Shown: positions 27,072-39,585 of the stretch, piece by piece | Layout of the letters: every line of letters starts with the position of its first letter | Numbering within the stretch: the stretch's first letter is position 1 | NCBI GenBank assembly: GCA_050330205.1 | Contig: JBHJOA010000016.1 | Location: forward strand, 21,637-85,636 | Origin: Kiloniellaceae bacterium | GTDB lineage: Bacteria; Pseudomonadota; Alphaproteobacteria; Kiloniellales; Kiloniellaceae | Length of the DNA: 64,000 nt | Reading direction: 5' to 3' | Made by a program: the position numbers and the translations under genes | Notes under the pieces: model-generated | The model's database searches: none | What the model saw: the letters and a program-made list of their open reading frames with translations, nothing else | Told to the model about the DNA's origin: nothing

Positions 27072-29891
27072 ATGACGCCTGGGCGGTCAGCCGCGACGAG
27101 CCCCGCCGCTGGCCTGGACTGGCGGCATGGGAGCCTGCGCCAGGTGATCGCCGGGCTGGCCCGTTTCGGCGACATTCCGGCAATCCTGACCCTCGGCGAG
27201 TCGGAGCCGCGCCAGGTCACCTTTCGCCAACTGTCGGAGCGGGTTGGGCGCCTCGCCCGCAGCCTGACCCGCCGGGGTCTCGGGGAGAACAGACGGGTAG
27301 GCATCCTGGCCGCCAACGATCCCGACTGGATCGCTGCTGCCCTCGCCGTGATCGACGCCGGCGGCGTGGCGGTACCACTCGACGCCAGGCTGGACGAGGA
27401 GTCGCTGCGGCACATCCTGGCCGACTGTGCCGCCCGGCTGCTCATCGTCGGGGAACAGGAACAGAGCCGCATCGCGCGACTCTGCCCGGCAGGCGTCGAG
27501 CTGATCCCGCTGGAGGGCCTATGGGAGGCCCTCGATACGGAGGAGTCGGAACCCGCCGCCGCGGCGCAGACCCGGCCGGAACCGGACGGCGACGACCCGG
27601 CGGTCATCTTCTACACCTCCGGCACTACGGGGCTGCCGAAAGGCGTCCCCCTCACCCACCGCAACCTCCTGTTCGAACTGGACAGCCTGCTGTCGGTCGG
27701 CCTCATGTCCGAGGGCGAGCGGCTGCTGCTGCCGCTGCCGCTCCACCATGTCTATCCCTTCGTCGTCGGCATGCTGGCGCCGCTGGTCTACGGCGTCGGC
27801 ATCGTGCTGCCGCAGTCGATGACGGGACCGCACATCCTGGAGGCGACCCGCGGCTTCGACGTCTCGACGGTGATCGGCGTGCCGCGGCTCTACGAGGCCC
27901 TGGTCTCGGCGGTCGAAAGCCGCGTCGCGGCGCGCGGCGCGGTGGCGCACCTGCTCTATCGGACGGTCCTGAAGGTCAGCCTTCTCGGCCGCCGGTACCT
28001 CTCGCTGCATCTCGGCAGGCTGCTGCTGCGCCCGCTGCACCGCCAGTTCGGCACCCGGCTGCGCCTGATGGCATCCGGCGGCGCCGCGCTCGACGCCGGC
28101 CTCGCCTGGAAGATGGAGGCCCTCGGGTGGACCGTGGCCACCGGCTACGGCCTGACCGAGACAGCGCCGCTGGCAGCCCTCGTCCGGCCCGGCGATTCGC
28201 ACTTTGAGAGCGCCGGCAAACCCTTGCCGGGCGTCGAGTTGCGCATCGCACCCCTGGCCCGGAAAACGGACAACGACGGGACAGCGGAGGAAGCGACGCC
28301 GGAGGGACGGATCGAGGACGGGGAGATCGGCGAAATCCAGCTGCGCGGTCCCAATGTCTTCGACGGTTACCTAGGTCTTCCCGAAAAGTCGGCCGAAGCC
28401 TTCACCGGCGACGGCTGGTTCAGAACCGAGGATCGCGGCTACCTCGACCGGGAGGGCTATCTGCACGTCCTCGGCCGCAGCTCCACCTTCGTGGTCACCG
28501 CCGCCGGTAAGAACATTTCGCTCGAAGAACTCGAGCGCCGTTACCAGGGACACCTGGCGATCAGGGAGATCGGCATCTTCATGCGCGACGGGCGGCTGGC
28601 CGGACTCGTGGTGCCGGAGCCGGCGGCCTTGCGCAATGCTGACGGCGGCGCGCCCGACGAAGTCGTCCGCGAAGCCGTCCGGGCGGTGGCGCGGCAGCTG
28701 CCGCGCTATGAACGCATCGACGACATTGCCGTGGTTCGCGATGCCCTTTCGCGCACGCGACTCGGCAAGATCCGCCGCGACAAGCTGCACCGTCGCTTCG
28801 ACGCCGCGTGCAGCGAGGGCGAGGCAGAGCCGAGCGGGCCGATGCCGGTGGAGGAGATGCCCGGCGAGGATCAGGCCCTGCTGGAGCGGGCCCCGGCCCG
28901 CGCCGTCTGGGAATTTCTCTGCGTGCGCTACCCGGCGCTGCGGCTGACCCCCGACAGCGATGTCGCCCGCGACCTCGGCGTCGATTCCCTGGGCTGGATC
29001 GACCTTACCCTGGAGATCCGCGAGCGCTGCGGCGTGGCGCTCAGCGAAGCGGCGACGGCGCGCATCGAAAGCCTGCGCGACCTGCTGCAGGAAGCGGTCG
29101 CCGCCGCCGGCCGCAGCGGCGTGCAGGCCGCCGCCCTGGAAGACGACCCGGAGAGCTATCTGACGGAGCGCCAGAAGCGCTGGCTGAAGCCGCTGAGCGC
29201 CGTCGAGAGCGCCCTCGCCTGGCCGATCTACCACCTCAACCGCGCGCTGGTGCGTGCCTTCTTCCAGGTCAGGGTATCCGGTCTGGAGCATCTTCGCGAA
29301 GCCGGCCAGATGATCCTGACGCCGAACCATGCCAGCGTGCTCGATCCCTTCGTGATCGCCGCCGTGGTGCCCTACGACATCCTGAGGCGCAGCGCCTTTG
29401 CCGGCTGGACGGGAATGGCCTTCGCCAATCCTCTCTACCGCTTCGTCGTGCGCCTCGGCCGCACCCTGCCGGTGGAGCACGACCGGGCCGCATTCTCGAG
29501 TCTTGCCGCCGCGCTCGTCGCCCTGCGCGACGGCATGAGCCTGATCTGGTTCCCGGAGGGACAGCGCTCCGGCGACGGCCGCCTGCAACGCTTCATGCCC
29601 GGGATCGGTGCCTTGCTGTCCAGGTCGCCGGCGACCGTGGTGCCAGCATTCATCGCCGGCACTTTCGAGGCCATGCCGCGGGGCCGGCGCCTGCCGCGCC
29701 CGGGGCGCATTGAGGTGGTCTTCGCGCCGCCCTGCAATCGCGAGGCGCTCGATCGGAGCGGGAAAGGCGACCGCGCGGAAACCCGCATCGCCGAGGCGCT
29801 GCACCGGCGGCTCGAGGAGTTGCAGGCAATGTCGGAGCGGAAGGGCGGGCCGGCCGACCCGAAGGAAAATGGTGGGCGTACCTGGGATTGA
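27072..29891 (+). CDS. tri-domain fusion: AMP-dependent fatty-acyl adenylase/ligase, phosphopantetheine carrier domain, PlsC-type acyltransferase
   Basis: 939 aa from ATG 27072 (GAGAGGAGG SD 7 nt upstream). Adenylation motifs YTSGTTGLPKGV, GWFRTEDRGYLDREGYLHVLGR and GKIRRDKL. Carrier motif LGVDSLG (Ser639, codon 28986-28988). Acyltransferase motifs NHASVLD (H753..D758, HX4D) and FPEGQRS. Confidence 0.85.
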   Translation: MTPGRSAATSPAAGLDWRHGSLRQVIAGLARFGDIPAILTLGESEPRQVTFRQLSERVGRLARSLTRRGLGENRRVGILAANDPDWIAAALAVIDAGGVAVPLDARLDEESLRHILADCAARLLIVGEQEQSRIARLCPAGVELIPLEGLWEALDTEESEPAAAAQTRPEPDGDDPAVIFYTSGTTGLPKGVPLTHRNLLFELDSLLSVGLMSEGERLLLPLPLHHVYPFVVGMLAPLVYGVGIVLPQSMTGPHILEATRGFDVSTVIGVPRLYEALVSAVESRVAARGAVAHLLYRTVLKVSLLGRRYLSLHLGRLLLRPLHRQFGTRLRLMASGGAALDAGLAWKMEALGWTVATGYGLTETAPLAALVRPGDSHFESAGKPLPGVELRIAPLARKTDNDGTAEEATPEGRIEDGEIGEIQLRGPNVFDGYLGLPEKSAEAFTGDGWFRTEDRGYLDREGYLHVLGRSSTFVVTAAGKNISLEELERRYQGHLAIREIGIFMRDGRLAGLVVPEPAALRNADGGAPDEVVREAVRAVARQLPRYERIDDIAVVRDALSRTRLGKIRRDKLHRRFDAACSEGEAEPSGPMPVEEMPGEDQALLERAPARAVWEFLCVRYPALRLTPDSDVARDLGVDSLGWIDLTLEIRERCGVALSEAATARIESLRDLLQEAVAAAGRSGVQAAALEDDPESYLTERQKRWLKPLSAVESALAWPIYHLNRALVRAFFQVRVSGLEHLREAGQMILTPNHASVLDPFVIAAVVPYDILRRSAFAGWTGMAFANPLYRFVVRLGRTLPVEHDRAAFSSLAAALVALRDGMSLIWFPEGQRSGDGRLQRFMPGIGALLSRSPATVVPAFIAGTFEAMPRGRRLPRPGRIEVVFAPPCNREALDRSGKGDRAETRIAEALHRRLEELQAMSERKGGPADPKENGGRTWD

Positions 29892-29944
29892 ACCAGGGAC
29901 CTCCTCGATGTCAACGAGGCGCTCTCCCGCTGAGCTATACGCCC
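29870..29944 (-). tRNA. tRNA-Val (anticodon GAC), CCA encoded
   Basis: Reverse complement reads GGGCGTA-TA-GCTCAGCGGGAGAGC-G-CCTCG-TTGACAT-CGAGG-AGGTC-CCTGG-TTCAATC-CCAGG-TACGCCC-ACCA. This is a complete cloverleaf with GAC in the anticodon loop. Confidence 0.95.
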
Positions 29945-32264: not shown

Positions 32265-32316
32265 CTCGCAGCTGCCGCGGCGCCGCGCGCGAATCCTGCC
32301 CCGGCTCCTGATTCCG

Positions 32317-32346
32317 AAAAAAAAAGGGCCGCGACAAGCGCGGCCC
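32317..32346 (-). terminator. strong intrinsic terminator on the minus strand
   Basis: Minus strand GGGCCGCG-CTTGT-CGCGGCCC followed by T9. No protein gene on the minus strand feeds into it. Confidence 0.8.
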
Positions 32347-32412
32347 AAGTTTAGGGAGGAAATGCCCTATGGAACTGCGGCAGGCCCCGGCAAAGCCGTC
32401 TCCATACCGCAG
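32317..32412 (-). ncRNA. candidate ~95-nt trans-acting sRNA (5' stem-loop, single-stranded CCUCCC region, terminator)
   Basis: Bounded by the predicted promoter (32446-32418) and the T9 terminator. 5' hairpin CUGCGG..CCGCAG (32412-32375). A 28-nt linker UUCCAUAGGGCAUUUCCUCCCUAAACUU carries an anti-Shine-Dalgarno CCUCCC (32359-32354). Confidence 0.45.
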
Positions 32413-38086: not shown

Positions 38087-38590
38087 CTACCCAATTGTCG
38101 ACAATTCGCAAGGCGCCCCTCGGGGTAATTCTATTCTGCCCCGAGAGGCAGCTTCCGTTGCAGCGAGCTCCCGCTGCAGAAGGCGTGCGGCCTGCGCCAG
38201 TTCGGCCTCGGAAGCGCCGCCGCCGTTCGTGGCGCCGCGGCGCCGTGCGGTGACGTCGCCGGCCGACAGCAGGGGCACCACCTCGACCTGGGCATGAGGC
38301 TCACCGCCGGCCGGGAACAGGAACCCGACCCGCTCTGCCTTGAAGACAGCCCTCTGAGCCTCGGCAAGCCGCTGGCCCAGGTGCAACAACTCACTCGCCA
38401 GGGACGGCGGCAGGGCATTGAAGTGCGGATAGTGATCACGCGGGACGATCCGCAGGTGGCCCGGGCGGATCGGGTCGGCATCGAGAAAGGCGACGAATCG
38501 TACCGTCTCGTGGACGACATGGGCAGGAAACGCGCCGGCGGCGACCGCGCAGGACAGGCAGTCGCCGTGAACAGAGGGATCTTGGGTCAT
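38087..38590 (-). CDS. HIT-family protein with degenerate histidine triad
   Basis: 167 aa from ATG 38590 (GGAG SD). HIT hallmarks C-x-x-C (CLSC), FLDADPIRPGHLRIVPRDH. The triad position reads H-A-Q-V-E-V-V-P instead of H-x-H-x-H-x-x. Confidence 0.72.
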   Translation of the reverse strand: MTQDPSVHGDCLSCAVAAGAFPAHVVHETVRFVAFLDADPIRPGHLRIVPRDHYPHFNALPPSLASELLHLGQRLAEAQRAVFKAERVGFLFPAGGEPHAQVEVVPLLSAGDVTARRRGATNGGGASEAELAQAARLLQRELAATEAASRGRIELPRGAPCELSTIG

Positions 38591-38860
38591 GAGCTTCGGC
38601 TCCGGAATGCGGATTGGGAAAAACAGAAACACCCCGGCCGGTCCCGGCGGGGTGTCCGCAACTCCGAAGAGCATCCTGGAAGATGGGCGCAGGCGCCCGT
38701 TACCCCGCGTTACCGAAAACGGCCGGGGTGGGGCATTCGCAAGAAGGTGCCAAAGCGCTTGTCCATGGGGCGCAACCATAGCGGCGAATCGGCACTTAGG
38801 GAAGCCCGTCAGGATGCTGGCAGCTACCGGTGCCCACCCCCTGGCGAAAGGTCGCCGCCG
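38591..38860 (-). promoter_or_regulatory. structured 5' leader (candidate riboswitch or attenuator) of the HIT-ACAD-GST-CoA-transferase-hydratase operon
   Basis: 9-bp long-range helix (38818-38810 with 38678-38670). 11-nt perfect antiterminator complementarity (38730-38720 with 38640-38630). Local sequestering hairpin (38729-38724 with 38707-38702). Terminator ends 25 nt before the ATG. Confidence 0.55.
38616..38655 (-). terminator. intrinsic terminator inside the leader, immediately upstream of the HIT start codon
   Basis: Minus strand ACACCCCGCCGG-GA-CCGGCCGGGGTGT (about 10 bp, one bulge) followed by TTCTGTTTTTCCC. Confidence 0.75.
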
Positions 38861-38880
38861 GGGCCTAGAATGCGCCAGCC

Positions 38881-39585
38881 ATGACCCTTGCCGAGACCGA
38901 AGCCCCCCTCCTGAAGCATAGCGACGTGCTGCGCCGCCACCTGCCGCTCGAAGGCGCCAGGATCGCCGACGTCGGCTGCGGCGACGGCGCGCTGGTGCGC
39001 GTCATGGCGCGCGGTGGGGCCTGGGTCCTCGGGATCGATCCCGGCGCCGGGCAGCTCGCCCGCGCCCGCGCCGCCGAACCGGCGCGCGACGAAAGCTACC
39101 TCTGCGCCCTGGGGGAGGCGCTGCCGCTGCCGGACGGCTGCCTCGATGCCCTGGTCTACTTCAATGCCCTGCACCATGTGCCGATCACCCAGCAGGACGC
39201 CGCCCTGGCCGAGGCCGCCCGCGTGCTGCGCCCCGGCGGCCTGCTTTATGTGCAGGAACCCCTGGCCGAAGGCGGCTACTTCGAGATCATGCGGCCGATC
39301 GAGGACGAAACCGAGGTGCGTGCCGAGGCCTACAAAGCCTTGAAGACCGCGGCGGCCGGTGGCGCACTGGAGGAGGTCGAAGAATCCTTCTACCGCGCCC
39401 CCTTCCGGGTGAAGAGCGCCGAGGCCTTCCTCGACGGCCTGATCGCCGTCGATCCTGCCCGCCGTTCCGCGGTGGAGGCGGCGGAAGCGTCGTTGCGGCG
39501 GGGCTTTCTGGCGGCAGCGGAACAGCGCGACGACGGATTCTGGTTCGAGATACCCTCCAGGCTCAACCTGCTGCGGCGAATGTAA
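38881..39585 (+). CDS. class I SAM-dependent methyltransferase (Methyltransf_11-like)
   Basis: 234 aa. Motif I IADVGCGDGAL. Post-I acidic residue GID. LDALVYFNALHHV. Confidence 0.85.
   Translation: MTLAETEAPLLKHSDVLRRHLPLEGARIADVGCGDGALVRVMARGGAWVLGIDPGAGQLARARAAEPARDESYLCALGEALPLPDGCLDALVYFNALHHVPITQQDAALAEAARVLRPGGLLYVQEPLAEGGYFEIMRPIEDETEVRAEAYKALKTAAAGGALEEVEESFYRAPFRVKSAEAFLDGLIAVDPARRSAVEAAEASLRRGFLAAAEQRDDGFWFEIPSRLNLLRRM

Follow-up and report, generated by a model that had tools for sequence, protein, structure and literature searches.

The textbook ribosome-mediated attenuator is the leader of the Escherichia coli trp operon (trpL; summarized in PMC4007540), in which termination is the default and a ribosome stalled over region 1, at the critical codons 10-11 of the leader peptide, gives read-through. 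In classical antitermination, it is the 5' arm of the terminator that is sequestered, and the sequence of the leader peptide in such attenuators is usually not selected. In TnaC, SpeFL and Salmonella mgtL/mgtP, a stall caused by a metabolite in the ribosomal tunnel, or the slow decoding of proline, within a short leader open reading frame (ORF) switches an operon that is catabolic or otherwise not biosynthetic; for TnaC and SpeFL, termination is Rho-dependent, and the peptides are longer and strongly conserved. Here we analyze a leader that, with a probability we put at roughly 60%, is a ribosome-mediated (leader-peptide) transcription attenuator, with a short ORF (sORF) that begins right at the transcript's 5' end or no more than about 2 nt from it. 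It is encoded on the minus strand within positions 38591-38880 of a 64,000-nt stretch of contig JBHJOA010000016.1 from a Kiloniellaceae bacterium (hereafter "the window", that is, the whole stretch analyzed), directly upstream of a five-gene operon that starts with a gene for a HIT protein. The best-supported classification of the element is an undescribed family within this known mechanism class, to which a helix sequestering the Shine-Dalgarno (SD) sequence of HIT has been added.

Individual features of the leader have precedents outside the enterobacteria. Deinococcus deserti has leaderless leader peptides for which transcription begins at the start codon itself, a -10 box lying just 5' of it, and a role in transcription attenuation has been predicted (PMC4007540); that organism belongs to another phylum, and in our case the start site is deduced from the sequence. 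A mycobacterial leaderless sORF with a polycysteine tract is the first cistron of its operon transcript, an RNA duplex sequesters the downstream ribosome-binding site (RBS), and the ribosome serves as the sensor; control is translational, via the duplex between the sORF and the RBS, and Cys is sensed through the poly-Cys tract (10.1101/834739). The Kiloniellaceae leader shares with it a putative leaderless sORF and a predicted duplex over the downstream RBS, but has an intrinsic terminator, an anti-SD strand (segment U) that lies outside the sORF, and no amino-acid tract. The trpL of Sinorhizobium meliloti is an alphaproteobacterial ribosome-dependent attenuator with a 14-aa leader peptide, and its terminated leader is a stable small RNA (PMC6614838, PMC7298713). 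It contains Trp codons, precedes a Trp biosynthesis gene and has a demonstrated function in trans, whereas any trans function of the present leader is purely speculative.

The layout of the leader is that of E. coli trpL: a short leader ORF with region 1 inside it, a stop codon just before region 2, mutually exclusive 1:2, 2:3 and 3:4 pairings, and an intrinsic terminator directly 5' of the first structural gene. Unlike trpL, it has no SD sequence, the sORF apparently begins where the transcript does, tandem codons for one amino acid are absent, and the regulated genes encode HIT, acyl-CoA dehydrogenase (ACAD), GST, CoA-transferase and hydratase proteins rather than enzymes of amino-acid biosynthesis. 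Furthermore, region 1 is fully complementary to region 4, and the SD-sequestering helix is an additional component. The leader has no sequence similarity to trpL, and an Rfam scan at E<=10 gave no match to any family, including those of known leaders. With TnaC, SpeFL and mgtL/mgtP, the leader has in common that its peptide motif, R-M-x-x-P-G-R, places Pro codons in the stall window that would be antiterminating; it differs from TnaC and SpeFL in the use of an intrinsic terminator, and there is no sequence similarity to them.

We collected 22 distinct leader sequences from Pelagibius, Kiloniellaceae metagenome-assembled genomes (MAGs) and metagenomes; 21 of these were aligned (alignment A3, to which the counts out of 21 below refer), and the 22nd (L048) was kept outside the alignment. 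A genome scan with an alignment of HIT homologues yielded 17 loci, with an obvious homologous leader in 6 (Pelagibius sp. 7325, L001; P. marinus NBU2595, L005; and Kiloniellaceae MAGs) and none at the 11 more distant HIT loci. Scanning metagenomes with a pattern built on regions 1-2-3 produced 13 loci, namely, 5 true leaders, all 5' of HIT, and 8 chance matches in GC-rich sequence within genes; look-ups of HIT homologues contributed additional leader variants. A blastn search of a plasmid collection with the leader gave no match, and the window contains no second copy of the leader according to searches with patterns of the sORF core or of the terminator. The distribution of the element is narrow, comprising Kiloniellaceae/Pelagibius and related metagenome sequences. 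The HIT gene directly follows the leader in all 22 cases, with a gap of 25-45 nt, which leaves no space for a second promoter, as the original prediction had already argued for the window. The core of that prediction, a conserved cis-regulatory leader with alternative pairings directly upstream of HIT, holds across the 21 aligned leaders.

The key feature that emerged from the alignment is an ORF of 18 codons plus a stop (MDKRFGTFLRMPHPGRFR, 38710..38766, minus strand), which starts with an invariant ATG and is open in 22/22 variants. It has 18 codons in 16 variants (L048 also retains this frame), 17 in L042 and L044, and 21 in L001, L031, L034 and L041. The shorter version results from an in-frame 3-nt deletion in the loop of hairpin 1:2. 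In the longer version, a 1-nt deletion carries the frame across region 2 to a TAA or TAG immediately after it (4/4), a triplet that is a stop in just 1 of the 17 aligned sequences with the other frame, which have their own TAA or TGA immediately before region 2. The stop codon adjoins region 2 in both reading-frame types. Between the ATG and codon 16 (48 nt), the aligned leaders contain no indels at all although codons 2-9 vary freely; the non-coding part 3' of the sORF includes indels of 1 to 13 nt. Three codons, 10 (CGA), 11 (ATG) and 14 (CCC), are invariant in 21/21 leaders, GGC occupies codon 15 in 20/21 and CGT codon 16 in 19/21. Among the Arg codons of ten genes in the window, CGA and CGT account for only 4.2% and 5.0%, respectively, and yet codon 10 is always CGA. 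The original prediction noticed a 9-codon mini-ORF (MPHPGRFR, 38736-38710) without an SD; it does exist but is only the 3' half of the conserved 18-codon ORF that starts at 38766. The lack of an SD had been taken there as a reason to prefer ligand or protein control over ribosome-mediated attenuation, an argument that fails because the conserved ORF starts 30 nt further upstream, with its ATG 6-8 nt after a -10 hexamer.

This hexamer, TATGGT in the window (38775..38780, minus strand), conforms to TAnnnT in 21/21 leaders and is always found 6-8 nt 5' of the invariant ATG, with variable flanking positions. A weak -35-like element, CTTCCC (38799..38804, minus strand), lies in a conserved block, GGGCTTTCC, 17-18 nt 5' of the -10 hexamer; in relatives, it reads TTTCCN or TTTGCA, a poor match to TTGACA, and it may act as a promoter element. 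Among loci with unlike upstream genes, conservation begins at the GGGCTTTCC-like block and the TAnnnT hexamer. From this arrangement, transcription would start at the ATG of the sORF (38766) or within about 2 nt of it. A distance of 6-8 nt between the -10 hexamer and the ATG is the signature of a leaderless mRNA, which would explain the absence of an SD; the sORF is probably translated from a leaderless or near-leaderless 5' AUG, for which folding predicts little base pairing. Among alphaproteobacteria, Caulobacter and Sinorhizobium have many leaderless mRNAs (PMC4117421). The transcript of the divergent methyltransferase gene on the plus strand of the window probably has a 5' untranslated region of only 2-3 nt too, so that near-leaderless transcripts may be common in this organism.

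Four segments of the leader, all on the minus strand, can pair with each other. Region 1 (CACCCCGGCCG, 38720..38730) covers sORF codons 13-16 and can pair with region 2, and its sequence is complementary to region 4 as well; region 2 (CGCGGGGT, 38702..38709) directly follows the sORF stop and pairs with region 1 or region 3. Regions 3 (ACACCCCGCCGG, 38644..38655) and 4 (CCGGCCGGGGTGT, 38629..38641) are the 5' and 3' arms of the terminator, the pairing of which is maintained across the alignment, and the U-tract (TTCTGTTTTTCCC, 38616..38628) corresponds to a T-rich run after region 4 in 21/21 leaders. In the window, the terminator stem is ACACCCCG(CCG)/(CGG)C-CGGGGTGT at 38655-38629, followed by TTCTGTTTTT (38628-38619), and ends 25 nt before the HIT ATG. 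A simple promoter and terminator scan found nothing on the minus strand and overlooked this terminator owing to a bulged C; in RNAfold, its energy is -16 to -21 kcal/mol in 21/21 orthologues, and that of the 1:2 hairpin is -13 to -16 kcal/mol. Region 3 nearly repeats region 1, and region 4 nearly repeats region 2; hence, the 1:2, 2:3, 3:4 and 1:4 pairings are all possible. In the alignment, 97% of the cells are paired in the terminator (3:4), 98% in 1:2, 99% in 2:3 and 96% in 1:4. The apex of the 1:2 hairpin differs in architecture between clades but remains a hairpin. Between regions 2 and 3, a small G+C hairpin (GGGCG-CCTG-CGCCC, 38685..38698) is predicted, and relatives have a GC-rich hairpin of 4-5 bp with a variable loop at the same site. 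The terminator, the ACCCCG/CGGGGT pairing of 38729-38724 with 38707-38702, which forms the 1:2 stem, and the small hairpin had all been pointed out in the original prediction and are borne out by the relatives. As to covariation among orthologues, which was suggested there as a check, the terminator contains one AU<->GC compensatory pair, in 4 sequences; the long-range helix discussed below is not conserved, and the pairing cores are invariant.

The folding predictions are compatible with a ribosome-controlled switch between these pairings. In transcripts that end after region 3, with region 2 free, region 2 pairs with region 1 in 16/21 leaders; blocking nt 22-49, to mimic a ribosome that has codon 12 in its P site, shifts region 2 onto region 3 in 17/21. 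Region 4 never lacks a partner when the ribosome occupies the stop codon. For transcripts up to region 4, the optimal fold in the absence of constraints is a nested hairpin combining 1:4 and 2:3 in 18/21. In the mechanism that we propose, transcription would start about 7 nt 3' of TATGGT, at the ATG at 38766, and a 70S ribosome would translate the 18-codon sORF without an SD. By default, 1:2 would pair, the 3:4 terminator would form, and transcription would stop at the U-tract, which is 25 nt short of HIT; termination would persist with a ribosome that has reached the stop codon, as region 2 would then be masked. If 2:3 formed while region 1 was free, region 4 would zip onto region 1, producing an 11-bp 1:4 helix, again a stable helix against the U-tract. 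Read-through would ensue only when the ribosome stalls with its A site at about codons 11-15 (Met-x-x-Pro-Gly), just after the rare CGA: region 1 would then be masked, region 2 would capture region 3, and region 4 would be left without a partner. In this scheme, the sORF would be translated, and stalling would be the trigger.

The 1:4 complementarity calls for a separate comment. The 11/11 match between 38730-38720 and 38640-38630 is real and retained (96% of the cells). It is also unusual, as only 2.8% of dinucleotide shuffles of the 290-nt region contain a perfect helix of 11 bp or more; the folding z-score of the whole region is just -1.7 to -1.9. The role of a classic antiterminator that was originally assigned to this match does not fit. 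An antiterminator must sequester the 5' arm of the terminator, and the 1:4 helix abuts the U-tract; 1:4 pairing is, therefore, better interpreted as a by-product of the layout or as a fail-safe terminator.

Pairing between the leader and the translation initiation region of HIT, which the original prediction did not notice, would add a second layer of control. Segment U (CTCTTCGGAGTTGCGGA, 38655..38671, minus strand), located within the 26 nt just 5' of region 3, is complementary to segment D (CCGCATTCCGGAGCCGAAGCTC, 38591..38612, minus strand), which includes the SD of HIT, GGAG at 38603-38600; GGAGC is invariant in the alignment. When all stretches of equal length in the DNA around each locus are compared, the U:D duplex is among the best 5% at 19 of the 21 loci and among the best 1% at 10, with a weak signal in the window itself (4.2%); the mean z-score against shuffled D is -2.5. 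The two segments co-vary between clades (CUUCGG:CCGAAG, GCUCUUG:CAAGAGC, CUCG:CGAG). Alternatively, segment U can form a local hairpin, UUCG/CGGA, and a helix of this type has 2 compensatory pairs. The U:D helix encloses the terminator and fits the conformation with 1:2 and 3:4; its combination with 2:3 would be possible only as a pseudoknot. For the full leader, the two global conformations are within 3.1 kcal/mol of each other in 12/21 leaders and up to about 14 kcal/mol apart in the others. Thus organized, the leader would keep read-through transcripts that leak in the terminator conformation poorly translated, with U paired to the SD of HIT. We also considered the 5' part of the sORF as the anti-SD strand, in the mycobacterial style, and rejected this candidate: its duplex with D does not exceed the genomic background at most loci.

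Several observations weigh against the interpretation of the leader as an attenuator. The frame +2 is stop-free as well, so that an open frame is unremarkable in itself, and the variable codons of the sORF show no excess of changes at third positions (mean entropy by codon position, 0.93/1.18/0.92). Because of this lack of excess, the peptide outside codons 10-16 is probably not under amino-acid selection. We searched the sORF for a run of codons for one amino acid and found none; only CGA-ATG and CCC-GGC-CGT are conserved, singly. RNA structure (hairpin P0, described below, and regions 1 and 2) could account for the invariant nucleotides of the sORF just as well as coding could. The CCCCG/CGGGG cores are invariant, so covariation cannot discriminate 2:3 from 1:4. 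When region 1 is blocked, the minimum free energy structure of the complete leader still contains 3:4, which rules out thermodynamic antitermination; antitermination must be kinetic, as in trp. The start site is placed solely by promoter-like spacing, with a weak -35 element. Finally, the regulated operon is not one of amino-acid biosynthesis.

Some of these observations would be accommodated by a riboswitch, or a leader bound by a protein or small RNA (sRNA), in which P0 and 1:2 form the sensor, 2:3 and 3:4 the expression platform, and the short ORF is incidental. P0 is a possible hairpin within the sORF (38733..38756, minus strand), with GCUUUG (38756-38751) pairing with CGAA(U)GC (38739-38733) across an 11-nt variable loop. 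Its 5' strand is the conserved GCUUYG of codons 4-6, and 94% of the cells are paired; no covariation is observed as the 3' strand is invariant, and P0 as the reason, at the RNA level, for the invariance of CGAATGC is an unproven proposal. A riboswitch would be in line with the strong nucleotide conservation of CGAATGC, CCCCGGCCG and CGCGGGGT, including the rare CGA and CGT, with the absence of codon periodicity in the sORF and with the way the invariant nucleotides fit into P0 and 1:2; the operon appears to be catabolic, which would suit an effector-sensing switch. However, the putative sensor is limited to two simple hairpins, which have variable loops, stems too invariant for a covariation test and hardly any unpaired nucleotides that are conserved, and no gene for an antiterminator protein is consistently linked to the leader, a TetR gene being present at some loci only. 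Rfam gave no match even at E<=10. The original prediction recognized no known riboswitch class, and in agreement with this, the Rfam 15 scan of 38300-39200 at this threshold retrieved no relevant family, the best matches being mir-4488 (26 bits vs 71, E=0.26) and ctRNA_pGA1 (14 bits, covering the terminator only), and a scan of the whole window at gathering scores found nothing in the leader region. An incidental ORF leaves unexplained the ATG 6-8 nt from the -10 hexamer, the 48 nt free of indels, the in-frame deletion and the frame-specific stops, and we consider this explanation unlikely, if still a serious one. The element might also be an independent small gene or sRNA of ~150 nt with a constitutive terminator, the HIT operon living on basal read-through and the pairings being without regulatory function; like rnTrpL/peTrpL, the RNA that is terminated, or the peptide, could then act in trans. 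The promoter, sORF and strong terminator do make up a complete ~150-nt unit, and the 151-nt terminated RNA folds into a nested hairpin at -67 kcal/mol (-51 to -70 kcal/mol in the 21 leaders with 1:4 and 2:3 enforced). Trans-acting sRNAs and peptides derived from attenuators are documented in Sinorhizobium (PMC6614838, PMC7298713). Nevertheless, HIT directly follows the unit in 22/22 cases, with no room for a second promoter, a simple terminator needs neither four-way complementarity nor a stop codon against region 2, and the U:D pairing connects the leader to the translation of HIT. A role in trans would supplement rather than exclude attenuation in cis, and as a full account of the locus, the independent small gene strikes us as improbable.

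Far less probable still is the architecture of the original prediction, namely, a leader of ~230 nt starting near 38877, with a 131-nt domain closed by a 9-bp helix, 1:4 as the antiterminator and 1:2 as the anti-antiterminator. Each of its pairings exists in the window, 1:4 and 1:2 are conserved, and the 9-bp helix (38818-38810 with 38678-38670) is a perfect complement that appears in the minimum free energy fold of the 290 nt. This helix, however, is not conserved and closes no domain in the relatives: a 13-nt clade-specific insertion creates its 3' arm, which is complementary in the window only, so the helix is not part of the conserved structure, and at least 9 bp of perfect helix is found in 29% of the shuffles. 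The insertion itself (38670-38690, minus strand), which is present also in L001, L031, L034, L041 and L048, resembles a tandem duplication of TCTTCGGAG. Neither the 9-bp helix nor the AAGUGCC and pseudoknotted AUUCGC helices are conserved; their 5' arms lie 5' of the -10 hexamer, in the methyltransferase promoter or in sequence that is replaced and wholly different between loci; the conserved element begins only at the -35-like block and the -10 hexamer. From the mechanism of intrinsic termination, a 1:4 helix set against the U-tract would be expected to favor termination itself. The proposed -24/-12 promoter fares no better. The sigma-54 consensus is TGGCAC-N5-TTGCW, and TGGCGC-N5-AGGC has no TTGC at -12; read on the opposite strand, it is the TAGAAT box situated 9 nt from the ATG of the methyltransferase, and it is present only together with that gene. 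The region upstream of the methyltransferase (38812..38880, plus strand) is outside the leader and is conserved only in loci that carry the gene. Its TAGAAT -10 box (38866-38871, plus strand), 9-10 nt 5' of the ATG at 38881, is kept at every such locus, reading TAAACT in L004. GCATTCTAGGC, which reads TAGAAT on the plus strand at this distance from the methyltransferase ATG, is found in the window and in the gene-carrying loci L004, L005, L031, L034, L041, L045 and L048, and is absent from L001-L003, L037, L039 and others.

Returning to leader-peptide attenuation, the geometry of the leader favors decoding of Met or Pro codons, or peptide-dependent arrest, over Arg as the signal. Codon 11, the sole Met codon apart from the start, and codons 12 and 14, which encode Pro, are all located within the stall window predicted to be antiterminating. 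An Arg-sensing attenuator was considered, given that Arg makes up about 20% of the peptide and that CGA and CGT are rare; it is unlikely, Arg being conserved also at codon 4, where a stall would lead to termination, and L040 retaining only one Arg. A more specific version, in which the leader peptide with its R-M-x-x-P-G-R core (CGA-AUG, CCC-GGC) is a ligand-dependent arrest peptide for a substrate or intermediate of the HIT/acyl-CoA pathway, is rather doubtful. Under this version, a stall on codons 11-15 would induce the operon through both antitermination and release of the SD, making the leader a metabolite sensor of the TnaC/SpeFL kind that employs an intrinsic terminator and a leaderless mRNA.

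The region 38591-38880 is a divergent intergenic region, with the methyltransferase (ATG at 38881) on the plus strand and, on the minus strand, the genes for HIT, acyl-CoA dehydrogenase, GST, a family III CoA-transferase and a MaoC-like hydratase. The HIT ATG is at 38590-38588 (and not at 38591). Formally, the leader overlaps a 230-aa ORF, and the judgment that its 63-codon extension is non-coding stands because the HIT homologues, including a 167-aa protein annotated in a Kiloniellaceae MAG that is 100% identical to the HIT protein of the window, begin at the downstream ATG; the G+C content at third codon positions is 66.7% in the extension, 75% in HIT and 87-92% in the other genes of the operon. 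Two HIT homologues, P0002 (184 aa) and P0012 (203 aa), are over-extended gene calls across the leader terminator and U-tract (…RTPRRERPGCFVSPTRIPEPKL…), the same artefact as the 230-aa ORF. The HIT protein (38090-38590, minus strand; alignment A1) has a degenerate histidine triad, HAQVEVV rather than HxHxHxx, with HVHAHLV retained solely by the distant homologue P0046, and contains an invariant N-terminal CxxC pair. As to the substrate of the operon, NCBIfam and PDB searches gave nothing more specific than generic relatives of the acyl-CoA dehydrogenase and the family III CoA-transferase, all below the equivalog cut-offs.

At most loci, the leader is followed by HIT-ACAD-GST-CoA-transferase. 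In L041 (389-1651) and L048 (645-1882), a gene for a protein with a metallo-beta-lactamase fold comes after the leader and HIT, in place of ACAD-GST-CoA-transferase, a gene order indicating that the leader is tied to HIT and not to the acyl-CoA genes. The upstream neighbors vary and include a divergent methyltransferase, TetR with an ABC-transporter binding protein, a divergent GST, a fragment of the arginase family and an autotransporter-like gene, so that they provide no consistent hint to the substrate of the operon. In L037, L039, L040 and L046 (about 400-2300, locus coordinates), genes for a TetR-family protein and a PotD/F-like ABC-transporter binding protein are located just 5' of the leader, and in L040, a 47-aa ORF is called between the TetR gene and the leader. 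These neighbors may hint at a second, transcriptional regulator and at a transported substrate. Elsewhere in the 64-kb window, the only Rfam matches at gathering score are to the suhB/mmgR sRNA family (32311-32392, minus strand, 51.8 bits) and a tRNA (29873-29944, minus strand, 68.4 bits).

For riboswitch discovery, the locus carries a caution: a GC-rich leader with a terminator and "alternative helices" is explained, under the attenuator interpretation, by a 57-nt ORF that became visible only after the orthologues were aligned. The practical value of the finding is modest, this being a taxonomically narrow element within a well-known mechanism class. If the interpretation is correct, marine Kiloniellaceae and Pelagibius would possess a family of leader-peptide attenuators outside Rfam, with the uncommon combination of a leaderless sensing ORF, an operon of HIT and acyl-CoA metabolism as the target, and no regulatory run of codons.

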